Below are positions 9,955 to 59,435 of a DNA stretch of 64,000 bases, piece by piece. Within the stretch, counting starts at the first letter, position 1. Each line of letters opens with the position of its first letter. Position numbers and translations under genes: made by a program. The notes under the pieces were generated by a model. It was not told the origin of the DNA, searched no databases, and saw nothing but the letters and a program-made list of their open reading frames with translations. The stretch comes from an uncultured Candidatus Berkelbacteria bacterium (GTDB taxonomy: Bacteria; Patescibacteriota; UBA1384; CAJBMM01), in contig CAJBMM010000005.1 of NCBI GenBank assembly GCA_903954185.1, positions 1,768 through 65,767 of the forward strand. Direction: 5' to 3'.

Positions 9955-10159
9955 AACTTACCCTCCTAATATTTACTTACGTATGAGCAAGGTCATCTAT
10001 TGAAATCGACAGGATCTCTCGCCCCGCTAAGCGGGGCATACGAGACGCTTAGCGTTTCGTCGAACTCGAGATGACATTGAACGAGTATCTTACGATACGC
10101 GTTTCATGCTTCATGCTATACAAAATATGCCTTACATCTATTATATATTATCGATTAAG

Positions 10160-10370
10160 TAGTACAAGAGCTGGGGGCATAGAGCATGAAACATTGTGCT
10201 TGATTCCAGCCAGACTAAAGTCTGTGCTCCGAGTTAACCCCGAAGAACACACTTTAGTGTCGTTTGCCAAGCTCCCGTCCTTCACTAAAGTTACGGAGGG
10301 CAAGAAAGCTTGTACTCCGTCGCCGTTTGGAGAACATACTTTAGTGTGGCCACGTTAAAACGTGTTCTAC
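10160..10370. repeat. dispersed repeat family B copy (modules cagacTTTAGTCTGg, cccgtccttcactaaagttacggagggcaag, agcttgtact)
   Basis: Closely related copies at 23991..24100, 26386..26565 and 28600..28705. Confidence 0.7.
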
Positions 10371-10508
10371 AAGAAATTCTTCCACAATTCTCCATTCTGC
10401 ATTCTGCACCCGTGGTGAGCCTGTCGAACACATTCTTCATTTTCCATTCTCTCCCTACTTGATACTTGCTCTTTAAACGGCTTAAATTAATAGTAAGGAG
10501 ATAAATTT

Positions 10509-11899: not shown

Positions 11900-13867
11900 G
11901 TGAACACTTCTGAAACAGAAAGCGCAGCAAGATGGATGAGATATTGGATTTTAAAGATGACCACTCGGGCTGAATCTGGACATGTTACATCATCTTTATC
12001 TGCTGTTGATATTTTAGCCGCCATAATGGATAGCGGTTTTATTTACGATGTAGAAAACCCGCATAACCAAAATAATGACCGATTAATCTTTTCTAAAGGC
12101 CATGCAACCCCGTTATATTACTCTTTTTGGGCACTGACCAGTGGTATCGAACCCGAACAATTGCTTGAATATCGTCAGTTTGGCTCTATATTAGAAGGCC
12201 ATCCAACACCGCAATTCATCCATACTATTGCGGCAACTGGTTCTTTAGGAATGGGGCTTGGGATAGGCACAGGAGTAGCTTTAGGATTTAAAAAATTGAA
12301 ATCTACAGGAAAAGTTTGGGTGTTATTAGGTGATGGAGAGCTAGCAGAAGGTTCGGTGTGGGAAAGCGCAGCCTTCGCATCGCAAAACAATCTTAACAAT
12401 TTAATCGCTATTGTAGATATCAATCGGCTTGGCCAATCTGGCGAAACTGCATATGGATGGAACGATAGTGTGTATAAGCAACGTTTTGAGGCATGGGGCT
12501 GGAAAACCATAATTGTTGATGGTCACAATATCAAAGATATTAAGCGAGGCTTGCATGAAGCGTCTCAAATTAGCAATACGCCAATTGTAATTCTAGCGAA
12601 AACTATTAAAGGTAGGGGCGTGTCTTTTTTAGAGAATATCGAAGGGTGGCATGGTAAGGCGTTAAATGAGGAAGAATGCAAACGCGCTTTAGCCGAACTG
12701 GGTGATATAAAACATAATTTACAAATAAAGTTAACAGCACCAAAAACGACGATGCATATAAATCGGAAGGTGGCTCCCGAAATACTGTCATCCTCGACTA
12801 GCCTATTCGAGGATCCAAAAACTAATAATTATGTGGATTCCTGCTTTCGCAGGAATGACGGCCAAAAGAATGGCGATAATTCAAATATAAAAGAACATAT
12901 TCCAAATCCTCTACAACCTACAACCCACAACCCACAACCTGACATTTCGCCTCGTGAAGCAATAGGCCATCAACTTGCCATCGCTGCAGAAGATGATGAT
13001 CGGCTACTCATTATCGATGGTGATGTAAAAAATTCCACACATTCTGAAATTGTCAGCCAAAAAACTCCTGAGCAACTTATAGAATGCTATATCGCCGAGC
13101 AACAAATGGTCGAGCTAGCCATTGGACTAGATAAAATTGGTTTTGCGCCTGTAGTAGATACATTCGCAGCATTTTTAACCAGAGCTCATGACCAAATTCG
13201 CATGGCTGCAATCTCTAAATCGAATATAATATTTATTGGCACTCATGTTGGTATTTCCATTGGAAAGGATGGTCCAAGCCAAATGGGTTTGGAAGATATT
13301 GCTATGTTTCGCCCGTTAGTCGATTCCACCATCGTCTCCCCTGCCGATACTCATAGTGCAATCCAGCTAACTACTCAATTAATCGGTTGTCGCGGAATTA
13401 GATATATTAGAGCCTTACGTGAAGTAACGCCTTGCATATACAATCAAAAAGACCAAATTGAGGTTGGCAAATGGCATGTCTTAAAAAACACATCTAAATC
13501 GCAAGTTGCCATTCTTGCTACTGGCATATCTGTACACAGCGCGCTTAAAGCACATGATAAATTGCTAAGCGATAACATTCCCACTATGATTGTGGATTGC
13601 TATAGTATTAAACCGCTGGATAAAGATAAACTAATAGAAATTGCTACCAAATTTAGACATATAATCATTGTCGAAGATCATTATTATCAAGGCGGGCTAG
13701 GCGATTCAATACTAGAGGCATTAAGCGAATTAAACATCGTTATACCAAATGTTTACAAGATAGCCGTGCAAAATATACCCAGATCTGGCACACCAAAAGA
13801 TTTGATGCAAAACGAGGGTATTGACGAAAAAGGTATAATAAAAAAAGTAAAAATGATTGTAAAATAA
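11900..13867 (+). CDS. tkt: transketolase with N-terminal (TPP-binding) and C-terminal (pyrimidine-binding) halves fused through a ~55-aa linker encoded by a dispersed-repeat insertion
   Basis: N-terminal half: ESGHVTSSLSAVDILAAI, GHATPLYY, LGDGELAEGSVWE. C-terminal half: IAEQQMVELAIGL, GTHVGISIGKDGPSQMG, and C-terminal domain. Likely start is GTG 11900 preceded by AGGAG; the ORF track begins at 11831 and overlaps mntH. Linker 12780..12945 contains the intergenic repeat motif tatgtggattcctgctttcgcaggaatgac. Confidence 0.8.
   Translation: MNTSETESAARWMRYWILKMTTRAESGHVTSSLSAVDILAAIMDSGFIYDVENPHNQNNDRLIFSKGHATPLYYSFWALTSGIEPEQLLEYRQFGSILEGHPTPQFIHTIAATGSLGMGLGIGTGVALGFKKLKSTGKVWVLLGDGELAEGSVWESAAFASQNNLNNLIAIVDINRLGQSGETAYGWNDSVYKQRFEAWGWKTIIVDGHNIKDIKRGLHEASQISNTPIVILAKTIKGRGVSFLENIEGWHGKALNEEECKRALAELGDIKHNLQIKLTAPKTTMHINRKVAPEILSSSTSLFEDPKTNNYVDSCFRRNDGQKNGDNSNIKEHIPNPLQPTTHNPQPDISPREAIGHQLAIAAEDDDRLLIIDGDVKNSTHSEIVSQKTPEQLIECYIAEQQMVELAIGLDKIGFAPVVDTFAAFLTRAHDQIRMAAISKSNIIFIGTHVGISIGKDGPSQMGLEDIAMFRPLVDSTIVSPADTHSAIQLTTQLIGCRGIRYIRALREVTPCIYNQKDQIEVGKWHVLKNTSKSQVAILATGISVHSALKAHDKLLSDNIPTMIVDCYSIKPLDKDKLIEIATKFRHIIIVEDHYYQGGLGDSILEALSELNIVIPNVYKIAVQNIPRSGTPKDLMQNEGIDEKGIIKKVKMIVK
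12826..12859. repeat. dispersed palindromic repeat family A core (ttatgtRgattcctgc-ttcg-gcaggaatgac) located in frame inside tkt
   Basis: Near-identical to intergenic copies at 20607..20640, 24224..24256 and 24183..24207, and to reverse-orientation copies at 19249..19325, 29667..29745 and 59288..59435. Confidence 0.8.
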
Positions 13868-23889: not shown

Positions 23890-23990
23890 CGAGTGTGTCG
23901 TAGGGGCATAACCCACGTGTCCGCCCAATTCATCAGTAGGAGGTTGTGCGATGAAGTTGTAGAGGTAATTTTTTGAATATATTATTTTTG

Positions 23991-24100
23991 CCAAGCTAAA
24001 GCTTGTTCTACGATTATTTGTAAAACAGACTTTAGTCTGGAACAAACCAAGCTAAAGCTTGTGCTACAAGACACCTTTCGTAGAGCACACTTTAGTGTGG
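23991..24100. repeat. dispersed repeat family B copy (ccaagctaaagcttgtNctac ... acagactttagtctgg ... cacactttagtgtgg)
   Basis: Matches 28600..28705, 26386..26565 and 10160..10370. Confidence 0.7.
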
Positions 24101-24441
24101 CTATTAACAAACTACAACTTGGATCCAGTGAGGTATTTGAGCTTGTGTATTCCAAATTCCAGATCTGCAGAGTATTTATCGTGTCATTCCTGCGAAGGCA
24201 GGAATCCAGTCTATCATAAATTTATTATGTAGATTCCTGCCTTCGCAGGAATGACAATGTGCAAAAATATTTAATTAGCAGTTCTATATTTTGCCACTTC
24301 CGTTACTTCTGCTACTTATTCTCTTTAGTCATTAGTCATTCGGATTTTTTGATTTCTGCCGTGCCGTCCGCTGTGCCATCCGTAGCTTTAGCGTAGGATT
24401 GGTAGCCTTGCGCGAAGGATCGGTAACTTTATTTACTTCTG

Positions 24442-24753
24442 CTATTCTGTCGCTTCTTCTTTCGCAGCGGGTTGGCTTGTTATCATATTTTGTCGCTTTT
24501 GCTGATAACATTCATCACACAAAATATCATTTGGGTTATTTGGTTTAAAACCAACTGTATCTTTTTTGCCACAAGCTTTACAAATTATTTCGGTTTGTTG
24601 CTCAATTTTGCGCTGTTTAATAGCATTGCGACATTCTTTGCATTTAGTTGGATCGTTCGAAAATCCTTTAGAAGCAAAAAACTCTTGCTCACGAGCGGTA
24701 AAAGCAAACTCTTTACCACAATTTTTACAGATTAATGTTCTATCGATAGACAT
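24442..24753 (-). CDS. zinc-ribbon protein with two CxxC...CxxC units (zf-trcl-like)
   Basis: CKNCGKEFAFTAREQEFFASKGFSNDPTKCKECR repeated as CKACGKK...CDECY. Confidence 0.55.
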   Translation of the reverse strand: MSIDRTLICKNCGKEFAFTAREQEFFASKGFSNDPTKCKECRNAIKQRKIEQQTEIICKACGKKDTVGFKPNNPNDILCDECYQQKRQNMITSQPAAKEEATE

Positions 24754-24826
24754 ATGTTCTCCTTTGTTGTTAAAAAATTATGTAAGGATAATCCCCTGTT
24801 TTCGCTACTTCCGCCCTTTCCCCCAT

Positions 24827-25675
24827 CTATCTGGCTGTCCGTAACCTTCTTTCTCTATCTTTAGCATCGTCTAACATCTCTTTATACTCGTTATTTTGTG
24901 GCTCTAAAGACCATGCTTTAGAAAAATTGCGCACCGCTTTGCTATATTGTCTTAGCGATAGATAACACCTGCCAATATCAGCTTGCCATTCAGCATTCTT
25001 ATCATCAAAATTTGATGCATCTTCATAAAACTTTACGGCTTCGTTATAATTCTCGCGTAAGTAAGAGATGTGCCCTAAAGAATTTAAAATATATCCATTA
25101 CCTGGTAAATATTTTAGTGCTTGTAAAAAAGCTTCTTCAGAATCGTTTAGCGCCATATTAGGCTGCCCTGTAATTTGAGCAACTTCTTTATGCACGGGCG
25201 AAGTTGCGCGGCGTAAAAATATTTGACCCAGTTTATAATAGGCAACAGCGCATTTTGGCTCTTCTGCCGCAATTTGTAAATACAATTTTTCCGCAGTATC
25301 TAACTGGTGCATATCAAAATGCTTCCGCGCTTCTTCCAAAGGTTGTACAAGCTTCGGAAATTTAAAACCAATCTCCTCTAGATTATCTCCTGGTTCTGCA
25401 AATTCGTTTGGTCGCACTATCTTCGGAGGATCGTTAAAAGCAAAATCGTCATCTATTGTCTTCTGGGGCAATTTAATGCTTGCTATTTTAGGAATTGCAA
25501 ACTTAAATTTTGGAATTTTTAACCAATTTATCTTCATCTCATCTCCATTAGCTGTTTCTGGAAATCTTCTAATTATTATGATAAAAACAACCGCAGCTGC
25601 TACTAGTATGATAATTTCATATATTCCCATGATCCCTCTTTTTTGAAACAACATTATTTGGCAATTCAGCGCCAT
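24827..25675 (-). CDS. membrane-anchored TPR-repeat protein
   Basis: N-terminal TM IIILVAAAVVFIIII, then TPR-like helices (AVAYYKLGQIF, AEWQADIGRCYLSLRQYSKAV). Probable start is Met-16 at about 25630. Confidence 0.6.
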   Translation of the reverse strand: MALNCQIMLFQKRGIMGIYEIIILVAAAVVFIIIIRRFPETANGDEMKINWLKIPKFKFAIPKIASIKLPQKTIDDDFAFNDPPKIVRPNEFAEPGDNLEEIGFKFPKLVQPLEEARKHFDMHQLDTAEKLYLQIAAEEPKCAVAYYKLGQIFLRRATSPVHKEVAQITGQPNMALNDSEEAFLQALKYLPGNGYILNSLGHISYLRENYNEAVKFYEDASNFDDKNAEWQADIGRCYLSLRQYSKAVRNFSKAWSLEPQNNEYKEMLDDAKDRERRLRTAR

Positions 25676-26312
25676 CTATTAAGTGAAGATAAGTAACTTC
25701 TAGCATTGCCTGCGCATTAATAGCGGTTGAGCTTAACATATTTCTCGCATCAATAATCCATCGCACTGGTTGAATATTTTTTCTGTCTATCAACTCACGC
25801 GTCCACTGATCTAGTAAGATGCCAGACTGGTTGCTTTCAACTATTTTTCCAATCTTCAAGCTCACTGTAGCAAAATCCTGAGCCTTATCAAGTGGTAATA
25901 AAATTTCGATAATATCTGCAACTTTTCTATTGCTCCATTCGCTGCAGCGAGAGCGTATTGTTGGTAGTATTTGCTTGGTTTTTGCAAACAACAATAGCCG
26001 CGTGCATTTTGGCACCTCTTCTAGTATTTTTAGCATTGCATTAGCCGCTGAATCACTACTATTATCAATAAATTTTATCACCGAAAGCCTAACCTTACCT
26101 TGCGACGGAAGGTGACGCGATATTTCTTCTATTTGCCTCGATTCTTCTATACTCAAAACACTCTCCTGGCCGACTTCTGCATAATCAAATTTAGATACAG
26201 CAAATTCAGTTATAGCTTGATTAATAATTTCTTCCCATGTGTTTTCTGGAGCAATAATTAAAAACGATTGTCCGGTGTGCCAAAATGTGTTAGGTGGGGT
26301 GTTGGATTTCAT
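25617..26312 (-). CDS. holB: DNA polymerase III delta-prime-like clamp-loader subunit lacking a canonical P-loop
   Basis: SDSAANAMLKILEEVPKCTRLLLFAKTKQILPTIRSRC matches the delta-prime (HolB) sensor region ...NALLKTLEEPP...TI.SRCQ. No Walker A was seen, as is common in delta-prime. Confidence 0.5.
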   Translation of the reverse strand: MKSNTPPNTFWHTGQSFLIIAPENTWEEIINQAITEFAVSKFDYAEVGQESVLSIEESRQIEEISRHLPSQGKVRLSVIKFIDNSSDSAANAMLKILEEVPKCTRLLLFAKTKQILPTIRSRCSEWSNRKVADIIEILLPLDKAQDFATVSLKIGKIVESNQSGILLDQWTRELIDRKNIQPVRWIIDARNMLSSTAINAQAMLEVTYLHLIDGAELPNNVVSKKRDHGNI

Positions 26313-26385
26313 AATTACACCCTTATATTGCAGAATTTATCAGAACTATGCAAGGCTAACGTAAATGAATTATAACCTCGCATAC

Positions 26386-26565
26386 CAGGCTTTAGTGTGA
26401 TGACAGCCAAGCTCCCCGTCCTTCACTAAAGTTACAGAGGGCAAGAGAGCTTGTACTACGGCAGACCTATTGTAGAACAGACTTTAGTCTGGCTTTGGAC
26501 AAGATCCCGTCCTTCGCATCCACCAGTTGGCCGGAGTTCCCAAGGGCAAGAGAGCTTGTAATACA
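26386..26565. repeat. dispersed repeat family B copy
   Basis: Contains ctttagtgtga, cccgtccttcactaaagttacagagggcaagagagcttgtactac and acagactttagtctgg modules shared with the 10.2 kb, 24.0 kb and 28.6 kb copies. Confidence 0.7.
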
Positions 26566-26602
26566 TCTAGGTTTTTCAACTCAAGATACAATAAATTATT
26601 GA

Positions 26603-27271
26603 TTAAATAATAGTAGCACGCACAATAAAGTTAGCTATGGCAATTAGTGGATTCATAACCATGCTCAAAACATTAATTGAACCGCCTGTAAAATTGCTTG
26701 AGAAAACAAGTGCAATAAGTAGAAATGGCCCAATTCGTTCGAACGATTCTTTTGCATCGCTTGCCAAAAAATAATTGAGAACTTTAGACCCATCTAAAGG
26801 TGGAATAGGGATGATGTTGAATACAGCTAAAATAATATTTATAGAAACTAAGGCATCTAAAAATAAATATCCCAGCGAGTGCGTTACATCAATTCCAAGC
26901 ATTATCATGATTCTAGCAGGTAAAAACAAAATTAATGCAGTAACAATATTAGAAATTGGACCAGCTAAAGCAATTTTTATCTCATCTGTATCGTGTTTTA
27001 ACGCATGATCATTATAAGGAACTGGCTTGCCAAAGCCAAAACCAGCTATTAGAAATAAAAATATTCCTAAGGGGTCTATATGCGCAAAAGGATTTAAGGT
27101 TAGCCGACCCATTAATTTTGCCGTGTCATCACCTAGACGAGTTGCCATCCATGCATGAGAAAATTCATGAATACCAATCGCCATTAAAATACCAAAAATA
27201 ATTCCAAGTATAACCGCAATTGCCATTGTGGGCTGATTAGTATATTGCTGCCAAATTGAAATTAATAACAA
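26603..27271 (-). CDS. site-2 protease family (peptidase M50) integral-membrane zinc metalloprotease
   Basis: HEFSHAW HExxH motif in the first TM region. Multiple TM helices. LDGS motif near the C-terminus. Confidence 0.75.
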   Translation of the reverse strand: MLLISIWQQYTNQPTMAIAVILGIIFGILMAIGIHEFSHAWMATRLGDDTAKLMGRLTLNPFAHIDPLGIFLFLIAGFGFGKPVPYNDHALKHDTDEIKIALAGPISNIVTALILFLPARIMIMLGIDVTHSLGYLFLDALVSINIILAVFNIIPIPPLDGSKVLNYFLASDAKESFERIGPFLLIALVFSSNFTGGSINVLSMVMNPLIAIANFIVRATII

Positions 27272-27422
27272 CTCACAACTCCTTTTTGCTTACTACTCAC
27301 TTCCAGCTACCCAATAAACTCTGTACTCTTGAATAATTCTCTAAAATAGTATAAAATAAATAAAGAATTGTTTCGCATGCATTAATCTTAATGAAAATAT
27401 ACCAATAGGTAAAGGAAAAAGA

Positions 27423-27584
27423 ATGTCTGTTTGCAGCCTCTGCTTAAAAACTCCAGCCGTAGCTAATAATGTACCAAAATCCGTGCATAAAACCAAGAGA
27501 TCAACAAAGCCAAATTTACAAAAAATAAGTGGCATTTTGGTATGCACTCGTTGCTCTAGAACTATTAAAAAATATCAAAGCTAG
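27423..27584 (+). CDS. rpmB: 50S ribosomal protein L28
   Basis: 53-aa product MSVCSLCLKTPAVANNVPKSVHKTKRSTKPNLQKISGILVCTRCSRTIKKYQS with L28-type Cys pairs and PNLQ motif. RBS AAAGGAAAAAG. Below the ORF-track length cut-off. Confidence 0.8.
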   Translation: MSVCSLCLKTPAVANNVPKSVHKTKRSTKPNLQKISGILVCTRCSRTIKKYQS

Positions 27585-27872
27585 TCGAATAGTCTCACTT
27601 GGACAGCCGATCGCCAGATCGTATCTATATATGTAGAATATTTAGATTCCGGATCACCCGTCCGAAAATGACATTTTGTAGGAACAGATTGCCGCGCTTT
27701 AGAACATTGGGTGTTCTTTCAATCGCAATGACATATAAAAAGATATTCCACAACTTAGCACATCTAGTCAGCCTATCGAACCTATTTTGACTTTTGAATT
27801 ATCTTTATATATCTTGCCAATTTTAAAGATAAACGCTATTATCCTTATCATAACTAATTTATAAGGAACTGA

Positions 27873-28589
27873 ATGAATATTACAATCGAGAATATTAAAT
27901 CTGCAACAGCTAAACTGCCCGTGGCAGTTTTTTGTATGGATGGACGCATGCGTCCGAATAACTCTGAATTAAGACCATTTATTGGATTAGCTGGCAGTGG
28001 CGTTTTGTGGGACGATGAATATGTTGCTCTTTTTGTACAAAAACTAAAAGATGCCAAAATTGACACCAGCTTAATTACTGTAACTTGGCACGAATTCTGC
28101 GGTGCTTGCAATGTTTTTAAATCAAAAAACCCAAACGATAATCGATCTCAGAATGAAATTGCCCAGTGGGGCGCTGAAAGATTAGCAACTGCGCTAGGTT
28201 CTGTAAAACCGATACTAAAAGTTGGTTGGAGTGAAAATTGCGATATCGCAGCTATGGGTAACCCCGATCATCATAGTGAACCCGCAATTATAATTGACGG
28301 TACAGGTAAATTGGATACTGAAAAAATTGATTTAGATAATGCATTTTTGCTTTCACATGCGTATGCTCCAGATGGTGATTGGATGCAACAAGAGTGCGAT
28401 ATTGCCTTAAATATTGCCATGGGTGAGCACGGCCCCGGAAAAGAACATTTTACTCAAAATCCAATGCCCGTTTATATTATCGGTAACGACAAAGAACAAG
28501 CCGAGCACAATCACGAAATTTTATCTCATGTTTTCGAAAACCACAAGACACAAATTAATCCGATAAAACTTGCAATCTCCGCGAAGTAA
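27873..28589 (+). CDS. hypothetical protein with beta-carbonic-anhydrase-like CxDxR ... HxxCG motif pair
   Basis: VFCMDGRM at residue ~20 and WHEFCGAC about 52 residues later reproduce the spacing of the beta-CA zinc-ligand motifs (CxDxR ... HxxCG). The rest is not recognisable. Confidence 0.3.
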   Translation: MNITIENIKSATAKLPVAVFCMDGRMRPNNSELRPFIGLAGSGVLWDDEYVALFVQKLKDAKIDTSLITVTWHEFCGACNVFKSKNPNDNRSQNEIAQWGAERLATALGSVKPILKVGWSENCDIAAMGNPDHHSEPAIIIDGTGKLDTEKIDLDNAFLLSHAYAPDGDWMQQECDIALNIAMGEHGPGKEHFTQNPMPVYIIGNDKEQAEHNHEILSHVFENHKTQINPIKLAISAK

Positions 28590-28599
28590 AAACTTCATA

Positions 28600-28705
28600 G
28601 ACCAGAATTTAGCCTGATTATAACCAAGCTAAAGCTTGTACTACAGCAGACCCCGTAGAACAGACTTTAGTCTAGTAAGACCAAGCTAAAGCTTGTGCTA
28701 CAACG
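28600..28705. repeat. dispersed repeat family B copy (two ccaagctaaagcttgtRctaca units flanking acagactttagtcta)
   Basis: Direct comparison with 23991..24100. Confidence 0.7.
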
Positions 28706-28793
28706 AAATATTTTCACGCTCATTTGACCTAATTTGAAACATTGAGCAATATATATCTAAAATTATTCCGAAAAATTGTATCTTCGCACCTTA

Positions 28794-29652: not shown

Positions 29653-29880
29653 AGATTCTCCTTAATGTGTCATTCCTGCGTAGGTCGTTCGATTGCACTC
29701 AGACCCTGAGCCTGTCGAAAGGGCAGGAATCTATCTAATACGTTTTGATTATTATGCATCCATCTTCGCACACCTCCGATATGCTTACCCCGCTAAGCGG
29801 GGGTCTACATCGCAGGGGCGCTTCATTCATTTATAAAACAGATATTCCAAAACTTTTAACTTTGCACATTTCACTTTTAA

Positions 29881-49148: not shown

Positions 49149-49164
49149 CTAAATCTCCAGTTTT

Positions 49165-49236
49165 TAGTCATTAGTCATTAGTCATTAGTCATTAGTCATT
49201 AGTCATTAGTCATTAGTCATTAGTCATTAGTCATTA
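49165..49236. repeat. (TAGTCAT)n heptanucleotide microsatellite, ~10 tandem copies, in the ftsW-murD intergenic space
   Basis: Direct reading: ttagtcattagtcattagtcattagtcattagtcattagtcattagtcattagtcattagtcatta. Shorter tracts of the same unit at 171..200 and 24305..24325. Related heptamer tracts at 57351..57412 and 58381..58410. Confidence 0.9.
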
Positions 49237-49310
49237 TAATGAATTATTCCATAATTCTGCACCTGTAGTGAGCTTGTCGAAACTATTCTGCATTCTGCAA
49301 TCTCCATTTT

Positions 49311-57411: not shown

Positions 57412-58332
57412 CTATATCTTTTCTGCCACTCGCATTTTGGCACTACGGCTACGTGGATTTCCTTTAATTTCTTTTTCGCCTGCAATGATTGGTGATTTAG
57501 TGATAATTTGTAAGGATGCCTTATGATTGCATTGGCACACTGGCATATTTGACGGACAAATACAGTCCAATGCCTCATTTCTAAAAAAGTTTTTAACAAT
57601 TTTGTCTTCGCCAGAATGAAAGCTAATAACTACAATTCTTCCGCCCTTAGCCAATAAATCTGTCGACTTTGCTAATCCAGCCATTAGTTGGCCAAACTCG
57701 TCATTTGCTTCAATTCGTAAAGCTTGAAAAACTTTGGTTGATGGGTTAATACCATGCTTATACGGAACCACCGATTCTATCAAAGTTCTTAATTGCTCCA
57801 CGGTTTTAATGCGATTTTTTTGTCTTTCGCTAATTATTTTATCTACTAAACGGTTTGTGCCCTCTTGACCATTCTCGGTAAATAATTGTTTTAGCTCTTT
57901 TGCCGTCCAATTATTGATAATATCTGCCGCACTCTTTCCGTTTACCCCAATTCGCATATCAAGTGCTCCGGTGCTTAAAAAACTTAAACCGTAGCTTGCG
58001 TCATCTAGTTGCACAGAGGAAACACCTAAATCCAATAGAATAAAATTAACAGATGAAAAATTGTTTTCGGCAGCTATTTGATCAATTTCGCCAAACATCC
58101 CTTTGGCCAATATAAGACTTGGATTGCAAATATGGTTTTTGCAATAATCTAAAGCTTTTTCATCTTTATCAATACCAAGATATTTCCCTGAATTTCCGAT
58201 GATATTTAACAGTGCCAAAGCATGACCACCAAAGCCAATTGTTCCGTCGATAACGCTATCGCCTTCTCGTAAATTACTTTGTTCTATAACGTGTTGTAAA
58301 AGTACTGGAATATGTGGGGAGTTATCTTGCAT
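57412..58332 (-). CDS. rsmH: 16S rRNA (cytosine1402-N4)-methyltransferase
   Basis: HIPVLLQHVIE...DGTIGFGGHA SAM-binding motifs of RsmH/MraW. Confidence 0.9.
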   Translation of the reverse strand: MQDNSPHIPVLLQHVIEQSNLREGDSVIDGTIGFGGHALALLNIIGNSGKYLGIDKDEKALDYCKNHICNPSLILAKGMFGEIDQIAAENNFSSVNFILLDLGVSSVQLDDASYGLSFLSTGALDMRIGVNGKSAADIINNWTAKELKQLFTENGQEGTNRLVDKIISERQKNRIKTVEQLRTLIESVVPYKHGINPSTKVFQALRIEANDEFGQLMAGLAKSTDLLAKGGRIVVISFHSGEDKIVKNFFRNEALDCICPSNMPVCQCNHKASLQIITKSPIIAGEKEIKGNPRSRSAKMRVAEKI

Positions 58333-59287: not shown

Positions 59288-59435
59288 TGTTATTCCTGCG
59301 CATGCAGGAATCTACATAATAAATCGGATAACTGGATTTCTGCCCATTCGACAAGCTCAGGGTCTCTAGTGCAATCGATTGACCTTCGCCCGTCTCGTTC
59401 GAGGCGAACAGCCGAGGTGGACAGGAATGACAGTG
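59288..59435. repeat. dispersed palindromic repeat family A, long composite copy
   Basis: attcctgcgcatgcaggaatctacataataaat ... cattcgacaagctcagggtct ... gacaggaatgaca. Same modules as 19249..19325 and 29667..29745. Confidence 0.75.

Follow-up and report, generated by a model that had tools for sequence, protein, structure and literature searches.

Probable GTAG-tagged REP arrays of inverted doublets in a Patescibacteria (CPR) genome

We analyzed a 64-kb stretch of DNA, hereafter the window, from an uncultured Candidatus Berkelbacteria bacterium, in which a family of short dispersed repeats (family B) forms four intergenic clusters. We consider it likely that these clusters are arrays of GTAG-tagged REP elements, organized as REPIN-like or BIME-like inverted doublets in a Patescibacteria (CPR) genome, and we infer that the corresponding single-copy RAYT is encoded elsewhere in that genome. 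The first-pass annotation of the window had described four copies of a repeat assembled from three short hairpin modules, had placed all of them between genes, and had suggested that it was either REP-like or a set of cis-regulatory RNAs. We find the repeat at each of the four sites, and a repeat search recovers the shared modules (families D4-D7 and D12). The intergenic setting was confirmed for every cluster, one of which lies between divergent genes, one between genes of the same direction and two between convergent genes.

Comparison of both strands of the window reduces family B to one 21-nt unit, GTAGNNCANNCTTTAGNNTGG, of the form GTAG-NN-CANNC-TTTA-GNNTG-G. The unit consists of a GTAG head, two free bases, a 5-bp stem and a TT(T/C)A loop. 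The outer C:G and A:T pairs of the stem and its closing C:G pair are fixed and the two middle pairs covary freely, with GAC/GTC, CAC/GTG, AGC/GCT and CGT/ACG among the stems seen in the window. The stem is not GC-rich and has 5 bp, or 6 bp when the outer loop bases T and A are taken to pair. The hairpins and the repetition of the earlier description stand, but in place of its three-part anatomy there is a single unit, present in both orientations, and an insert in the loop. The supposed second module (CCAAGCTAAAGCTTGTNCTAC) is the reverse complement of the unit in the first, with another stem; when GTAGAACAGACTTTAGTCTGG on one strand is set against GTAG(N)ACAAGCTTTAGCTTGG read off the other, only the stem differs. 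The third module is not free-standing. It is an insert of 31-32 nt in the loop of a (-) unit, which the doublet alignment resolves as a clean indel that, on the strand of the unit itself, falls between TTT and A. The hairpin drawn for it earlier is not its best pairing, the consensus structure being of the CCCGTCC/GGAGGG type.

With up to two mismatches allowed, the unit pattern is matched 12 times in the window, where 100 dinucleotide shuffles lead one to expect 0.10. A scan made without this pattern, for perfect C-TTYA-G hairpins whose stem has at least 5 bp, gave 8, and mononucleotide shuffles gave 0.39. All 8 lie within the four clusters, and each time a GTAG-like head stands 2 nt from the stem (GTAG in seven, a GTAA or GGAG-type head in one). 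With degenerate and long-loop copies included, the window holds 17 units in the four clusters, and the rest of the 64 kb contains none. The head is exactly GTAG in 9 of the 17, and the others read GGAG, GAAG or GTAA or are eroded, GGAG and GAAG both being found in cluster 1. The clusters and their units are as follows.

10159..10370: cluster 1, five units, between a divergent 953-aa gene (-) and an NRAMP gene (+)
10159-10168: possible truncated head of 10 nt in cluster 1, GTAGTACAAG
10210..10230 (-): unit GGAGCACAGACTTTAGTCTGG, head GGAG
10242..10262 (+): unit GAAGAACACACTTTAGTGTCG, head eroded, one stem mismatch
10267..10318 (-): long-loop unit, GGAGTACAAGC-TTT-(31-nt insert CTTGCCCTCCGTAACTTTAGTGAAGGACGGG)-A-GCTTGG, the "module 3" of the first-pass annotation
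10329..10349 (+): unit GGAGAACATACTTTAGTGTGG, stem with one G-T pair
10350..10370 (-): unit GTAGAACACGTTTTAACGTGG, loop-closing C:G replaced by T:A, a compensatory change
23991..24100: cluster 2, the site originally flagged, two head-to-head doublets, between a convergent 309-aa MerR/"Fic" gene (+) and a zf_Tbcl gene (-)
23991..24011 (-): unit GTAGAACAAGCTTTAGCTTGG, CAAGC type
24020..24040 (+): unit GTAAAACAGACTTTAGTCTGG
24047..24067 (-): unit GTAGCACAAGCTTTAGCTTGG, CAAGC type
24080..24100 (+): unit GTAGAGCACACTTTAGTGTGG
26380..26564: cluster 3, four units of which two are long-loop, between the stop of an M50 peptidase gene (-) and the start of a holB-like gene (-)
26380..26400 (+): degenerate unit GCATACCAGGCTTTAGTGTGA
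26407..26459 (-): long-loop unit, GTAGTACAAGC-TCT-(32-nt insert)-A-GCTTGG
26472..26492 (+): unit GTAGAACAGACTTTAGTCTGG
26498..26564 (-): degenerate long-loop unit, GTATTACAAGCTCT-(longer insert with shared CTTGCCC...GGACGGG ends)-ATCTTGTC, repeat family D6
28597..28701: cluster 4, four units, between convergent 238-aa (+) and 174-aa (-) genes
28597..28617 (+): degenerate unit ATAGACCAGAATTTAGCCTGA
28624..28644 (-): unit GTAGTACAAGCTTTAGCTTGG, CAAGC type
28655..28675 (+): unit GTAGAACAGACTTTAGTCTAG
28681..28701 (-): unit GTAGCACAAGCTTTAGCTTGG, CAAGC type

Two gene labels next to the clusters were revised. The 309-aa gene carries the JGI name Fic family protein, but Pfam recognizes only a C-terminal MerR helix-turn-helix domain. 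The label "beta-CA-like" for the 238-aa gene is unsupported, as Pfam gives no hit. A 565-aa neighboring gene encodes an arginyl-tRNA synthetase by its Pfam domains.

The hairpin is maintained by compensatory change. In 122 distinct units from many genomes, 96.4% of stem cells are paired, compared with 78.0 +/- 0.9 in shuffles, and 118 stem cells carry double changes, compared with 40.7 +/- 6.2; the observed values were reached in 0 of 500 shuffles. The covariation check proposed in the first-pass annotation came out in favor of retained base pairing. Pair 9:18 alone occurs as CG in 43, AU in 39 and GC in 36 units, and sliding the 3' partners by 1-3 columns lowers pairing to 17-49%. Little variation is seen in the head, the loop and the outer and closing pairs, but these positions were set by the search pattern. 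Among 142 distinct units the four head positions read G in 138, T in 125, A in 132 and G in 132, always 2 nt from the stem, counts that are partly imposed because GTAG was part of the pattern (up to two mismatches); the 2-nt offset found in the pattern-free scan is not imposed. Across phyla, 15 of the 21 unit positions are conserved.

A loose scan of GTDB genomes with a pattern of 15 fixed bases gave at least 120 exact matches; of the 120 listed, 44 had both free stem positions complementary where 7.5 were expected, and about 60% of the matches listed are chance matches. The matches listed include Saccharibacteria, Berkelbacteria, other Patescibacteria, Sumerlaeota, Verrucomicrobiota, Victivallales, Acidobacteriota, Bacteroidota and others, and in the loci drawn from them the units form alternating arrays as in the window. 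A 20-base pattern retrieved 15 loci from metagenome contigs, none of them from the organism of the window. A blastn search of PLSDB plasmids with cluster 2 gave no match.

Within the arrays the orientation of units alternates strictly, giving head-to-head doublets of ~50-60 nt. In the window the CTAC...GTAG heads face each other across 8-12 nt and the hairpin ends across 0-6 nt, with a period of ~57 nt. Arrays flanking RAYT genes in other genomes have the same architecture: there the heads are 8-11 nt apart (median 9) and the hairpin ends 2-6 nt apart (median 5). Five head-to-head doublets of the window align end to end with the spacer included, and thus we take the doublet of ~50-60 nt, not the single hairpin, to be the copied entity. 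Stem subtypes are also distributed by strand: in 18 of 21 loci, CAAGC/CAAAC-type stems tend to lie on one strand and all other stems on the opposite one. We considered a replication-strand bias, as the four clusters share one polarity and the GC skew of the window is uniformly negative, and rejected it, since across loci the CAAGC-type units divide 12 to 9 with respect to skew and are inconsistent.

Single hairpins are weak, doublets reach z scores of about -0.8 to -2.3, and a whole cluster reaches -3.4 to -3.6 on either strand. The minimum-free-energy folds of doublets alternate between two small hairpins and one imperfect long hairpin (z -0.8 to -2.3). The classical long REPIN hairpin is not clearly favored over two small ones, because the two arms of a doublet belong to different subtypes and pair imperfectly. 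The loop insert marks a "long" form of the REP. Five other genomes (L060, L124, L134, L136 and L139) carry loop inserts whose position and orientation agree with those in the window, which makes at least six genomes in all; in the other genomes the insert starts with CTTG (or CGTG/TCTG) and has a covarying 6-bp stem of its own. Its overall length is ~30-50 nt. By-eye inspection of the sequences at the cluster edges revealed no common termini or duplications, and a MITE (70-300 bp, with terminal inverted repeats of 15-30 bp and target-site duplications) was rejected for arrays made of 21-nt units with spacers of 0-12 nt.

Outside the window, the unit is associated with genes for RAYTs, the REP-associated tyrosine transposases, which are HUH and Y enzymes related to IS200/IS605. 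Of nine independent RAYT loci, all from other genomes, eight are bracketed on both sides by the unit. Seven of them (L017, L129, L144, L145, L147, L150 and L155) encode CPR-type RAYTs that are 62-100% identical to the protein P0001, and the eighth, L100, is a Verrucomicrobia MAG whose RAYT is only 27% identical. In L017, from Saccharibacteria, the Y1/HUH gene lies exactly between two arrays, and the same holds for L100; both genes were found by tblastn with the RAYT sequences of the supplement to Di Nocera et al. 2013. A distance of 11-23 nt separates the end of a (+) unit from the RAYT start codon downstream, and a (-) unit often follows 1-6 nt past the stop. The identity of the proteins is supported by the NCBIfam model NF047646 "REP-associated tyrosine transposase" (cut-off 80), against which P0001 scores 99.8, P0039 92.7 and P0012 96 bits. 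Their sole PDB match is TnpA(REP), 4ER8 (E = 8e-10), with the HUH and Y motifs aligned. The motifs of the RAYTs themselves read NHYH ... YIHHNP and, by resemblance, would place the proteins close to subclass 2.8 of Quentin et al. 2018. The family comprises 477 representatives at E up to 1e-10. Other genes enclosed by arrays elsewhere are a PIN-like toxin pair, a cupredoxin-like protein and a secreted protein (labels read from ORF translations), and among the array-enclosed genes of other genomes no family besides RAYT is recurrent. RAYTs of cyanobacterial plasmids (Nostoc flagelliforme, Gloeocapsa, Kovacikia) were set aside as irrelevant to family B, being flanked by nothing or by another REP (GTAGGATGCGTTA...).

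GTAG-tagged REPs are well established, also outside Proteobacteria, as are the inverted dimers and clusters that they form and their connection with RAYTs (PMC3733652, PMC6006769). Family B shares with the GTAG REP/REPtron (Nunvar 2010; PMC3733652; E. coli TnpA(REP)/RayT, 4ER8) a 5' GTAG head 0-2 nt from a short stem-loop, minimal loops of the TY type, sub-families defined by complementary stem changes, intergenic inverted dimers and clusters, and a RAYT gene flanked by the same repeat. Short-loop and long or complex-loop variants side by side are likewise common to both (PMC3733652, PMC6006769). It differs in its AT-rich stem of only 5-6 bp, which is below the 6-13 bp of catalogued GTAG families (PMC3733652) and below the 7-20 nt that a REP search rule demands of a fully paired, GC-rich basal stem (PMC6006769). 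However, the Thauera GTAG-1 family is listed with 5-bp stems (PMC3733652), and thus a 5-bp stem places family B at the edge of the GTAG family without disqualifying it. Two further differences are the conservation of the unit across phyla although the RAYTs share only ~27% identity, and the host group, Patescibacteria being missing from the 2013 survey of 8 phyla (PMC3733652). Our search of the RAYT/REPIN literature found no report linking RAYT or REPIN with Patescibacteria.

The REPIN of Pseudomonas fluorescens (Bertels & Rainey 2011, PMC3116915) resembles the family B doublet in that two inverted REPs with a short spacer are the replicated entity and the presumed partner is a single-copy RAYT. 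In contrast to the REPIN, family B has arms of different stem subtypes and therefore no clean long hairpin, and its doublets are packed head to tail into arrays with a period of ~57 nt. The E. coli BIME offers a parallel for the subtypes: it is built of two kinds of REP that take turns in opposite orientation, separated by linkers of characteristic length, and the strand preference of the family B subtypes is like that of its Y and Z REPs. Family B departs from BIMEs in sequence, has units that are much shorter, and lacks named linker motifs. The SDR1-8 repeats of Nostoc punctiforme are reported to be hairpin repeats of 21-27 nt with nested insertions and compensatory mutations (Elhai et al. 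2008, Genome Res 18:1484), and family B likewise consists of very small hairpins with a nested insertion and compensatory changes. SDRs are reported from Nostocaceae only, with SDR5 inserted in HIP1 (Elhai et al. 2008, Genome Res 18:1484). We rejected membership of family B among them, as the 64 kb contain no HIP1 site and RadA is closest to Patescibacteria.

A cyanobacterial host was rejected on similar grounds, namely the absence of the HIP1 octamer from the 64 kb, the affinity of RadA, and a gene content that fits CPR. The closest named relatives of RadA are "Patescibacteria group bacterium" (67%) and Berkelbacteria (~52%), and relatives are carried on contigs of 0.5-1.0 Mb. Exact and near relatives of the window were found only in lake and aquifer metagenomes. 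We regard a CPR/Patescibacteria host as very likely. Genes of the window include PilB, PBP1A, PBP2, RecJ, RadA, TyrRS and transketolase, and its GC content is 38.9%. The window also carries heptamer tandem repeats, and several hairpin-repeat families fill its long intergenic regions.

Arrays turn over between relatives. The relative L128 (57% protein identity in the holB-like protein, ~66-85% DNA identity over aligned segments) has the same genes as the window; its intergenic regions are short, and all four clusters are missing. Compared with L128 and L124, two neighboring segments of the window, holB-TPR-zf and L28-M50, are each inverted in place. The first of the three junctions coincides with cluster 2, the middle one, which both inversions share, with cluster 3, and the third with another repeat family. 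The site of cluster 4 is occupied in L128 and in a 90%-identical relative by a ~1-kb HD-domain gene, and in the latter only 17 nt separate a 235-aa gene from the HD gene. This suggests that the interval of cluster 4 has changed recently. Since arrays are found at two inversion junctions and at a site of gene loss, they may drive genome rearrangement in symbionts. Many contigs with the 309-aa gene stop ~100-170 nt past cluster 2, at or just past a neighboring family-A-like doublet. Family B repeats may contribute to breaks in metagenome assemblies.

The reading as REP arrays has to be weighed against three others. It is unlikely, though it is the strongest of these, that the units are fossil REPs whose ancestral RAYT was lost and whose copies persist passively or as substrates of homologous recombination. 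A tblastn search of the 64-kb window detected no RAYT, and the organism's own RAYT was not found by a homologue search from P0001, which reached only close CPR relatives; thus the window copies could be relics. The eroded heads in cluster 1, the degenerate units at 26380, 26498 and 28597, and the position of clusters at rearrangement junctions point the same way. However, clusters 2 and 4 contain near-perfect units with intact GTAG heads, the HD-domain gene in the cluster 4 interval of the 90%-identical relative suggests recent change, and 64 kb of a ~1-Mb genome is too small a sample for calling a RAYT absent.

The first-pass suggestion of RNA, in which the hairpins would be structured cis-regulatory RNAs or small RNAs (attenuators, mRNA stabilizers or protein-binding motifs) repeated because they share a regulator, is very unlikely in our view, although the hairpins covary, the clusters are intergenic with three of four downstream of at least one gene, and E. 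coli REPs are able to stabilize upstream mRNA (PMC3733652). Rfam assigns only tRNAs in the window and nothing in 15 array-bearing loci, and permissive thresholds (E up to 10) add matches at chance level only. The units occupy both strands in strict alternation, so that no single transcript orientation is kept; their position relative to genes varies among divergent, same-direction and convergent settings, and the genes on either side have unrelated functions. The hairpins are not followed by T-tracts. A terminator function was also rejected: a single unit qualifies as a weak terminator-like site, there are no T-runs after the clusters, and the real terminator-like sites near cluster 4 fall outside it. 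The bracketing of transposase genes by the unit in 8 genomes is a further argument against RNA. The same association makes it most improbable that the units are sites for a host DNA-binding protein (for nucleoid organization, of a gyrase-like or IHF-like kind, or for a recombinase) conserved for host function, as no gene other than RAYT is found repeatedly and directly next to the unit. The 15 of 21 positions conserved across phyla and the fixed spacings within arrays would suit such sites, and E. coli BIMEs are reported to bind gyrase, IHF and Pol I, which lends this explanation some support. Against it, the distribution is patchy between relatives, L128 having none, and host binding would in any case be compatible with a RAYT origin and not exclusive of it. 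The REP-like alternative of the first-pass annotation is the one that the GTAG head, the compensatory hairpin, the inverted doublets, the intergenic clusters and the flanking of RAYT genes elsewhere all favor.

If family B consists of REP arrays, the agent that spread it was most likely a RAYT working on single-stranded DNA. By homology with E. coli TnpA(REP) and the Pseudomonas REPINs, from which both the action on the window copies and the reaction chemistry are drawn, a single-copy HUH/Y1 RAYT encoded elsewhere in the genome would bind the hairpin in single-stranded DNA, read the GTAG head, and then cleave and rejoin. Doublets would in this way be excised, copied and reinserted in intergenic DNA, and the arrays would grow.

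A wider proposal is more tentative, and we think it more doubtful than probable. One REP type, GTAG-NN-CA-NN-C-TTYA-G-NN-TG, together with the array geometry, may be common to RAYT systems from Patescibacteria to Verrucomicrobia and mark an ancient or horizontally spreading RAYT lineage, with the single-stranded TTT^A loop serving as a specific site of integration for a second structured element, the "module 3" insert. Such a shared type would probably reach Victivallales, Sumerlaeota, Acidobacteriota and Bacteroidota, and its RAYT lineage would possibly lie near subclass 2.8 of Quentin 2018. If this is true, the lineage has a fixed recognition code with two free base pairs, and it persists even in streamlined CPR genomes of ~1 Mb. 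As the unit is near-invariant while the RAYTs diverge, and exactly two pairs are free, it is a convenient natural data set on how RAYTs read DNA.

CPR/Patescibacteria have small, streamlined genomes that are commonly described as repeat-poor. Family B would tie a family of hairpin repeats to a domesticated-looking transposase family, RAYT, in one such genome, and would place a known kind of selfish DNA, the REP, in a host group for which the literature that we searched does not describe it. The most interesting residue of the analysis is the conservation of the unit across phyla alongside divergent RAYTs, together with the nested insert that is specific to its loop.

We compared the gene order of window positions 23890-27912 with that of two related genomes (loci L128, 2213-5467, and L124, 3344-6343). 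This revealed two in-place inversions relative to both relatives, one of the holB-TPR-zf block and one of the L28-M50 block. Clusters 2 and 3 of the family B arrays are among the dispersed repeats found at the inversion junctions, and the third junction bears a copy of a third dispersed family (D3/D9). A comparison of window positions 28590-28791 with L128 (6153-7151) and the contig encoding protein P0094 showed that both relatives have a gene for an HD-domain protein of about 330 aa, flanked by the 235-aa and 174-aa genes. This gene is absent from the matching interval of the window, which is the site of cluster 4.

A repeat search of the window returned two further dispersed families and a tandem heptamer. 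One family is a hairpin doublet with arms GTCATTCCTGCGAAGGCAGGAATC and GATTCCTGCCTTCGCAGGAATGAC, each arm forming its own hairpin (CCTGC-GAAG-GCAGG), and is probably the "family A" of the first-pass annotation. Cluster 2 is followed, 80 nt downstream, by one copy of this doublet. Among metagenome contigs that include the 309-aa gene beside the cluster, several short ones end about 100-170 nt past the cluster, at or just beyond the doublet. The D3/D9 family has the core CCTGTAGTGAGCCTGTCGAAC, in which GTAG is also present, and has one copy 35 nt downstream of cluster 1. The heptamers resemble cyanobacterial STRR repeats, a likeness that is misleading as to the host.

Other repeats in the window.
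24183-24255: hairpin doublet
about 12823-12861, 16711-16756, 19243-19326, 20603-20641, 20886-20924: hairpin doublet, further copies
about 29662-29744, 57602-57629, 59304-59325: hairpin doublet, further copies
10405-10429, 22819-22879, 27738-27798, 49239-49299: D3/D9 family
49159-49236, also 164-199 and 24320-24341: tandem heptamers (AGTCATT)n

An open reading frame of 95 aa (window 10071-10358, + strand) crosses cluster 1. This frame, which could be wrongly annotated as a gene, is almost certainly spurious, a product of the repeats.

Many homologs of the REP-associated tyrosine transposase (RAYT) exceed the 181-aa query by 40-160 aa, with the query match split into two or three stretches (P0223, P0228, P0230, P0234, P0238, P0246, P0253, P0259 and P0261). 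The extra length and split matches may reflect insertions within RAYT genes; REP insertions in tnpA(REP) have been described (Quentin et al. 2018, PMC6006769). On plasmids of Gloeocapsa PCC 7428 and Kovacikia, RAYT genes have a different GTAG REP, GTAGGATGCGTTA...TAACGCATCC, at their flanks. The Gloeocapsa PCC 7428 RAYT match has no annotated feature beneath it in the gene table of the plasmid collection, which is itself incomplete.

RAYT-flanking GTAG REP on plasmids.
L122, about 1845-1900 and 2550-2590
L123, about 1920-1950 and 2560-2600

The 21-nt family B unit is also found in other genomes. In some, it forms direct tandem arrays with a 26-nt or 41-nt period, rather than alternating ones. 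Among the matches listed in the genome scan, perfectly paired copies occur in cultivated Bacteroidota and several other phyla.

The 21-nt unit in other genomes.
L045, 6531-6603, and L090, 2039-2111 (Sumerlaeota MAG): direct tandem arrays
L132, 1527-1629: direct tandem array
L013 (Flavobacterium micromati DSM 17659): perfectly paired
L012/L046 (Flavipsychrobacter stenotrophus): perfectly paired
L008 (Victivallales): perfectly paired
L117 (Kiritimatiellia): perfectly paired
L053 (Ignavibacteriales): perfectly paired

Thus, from its copies in Bacteroidota and other phyla, this type of unit reaches well outside the CPR.
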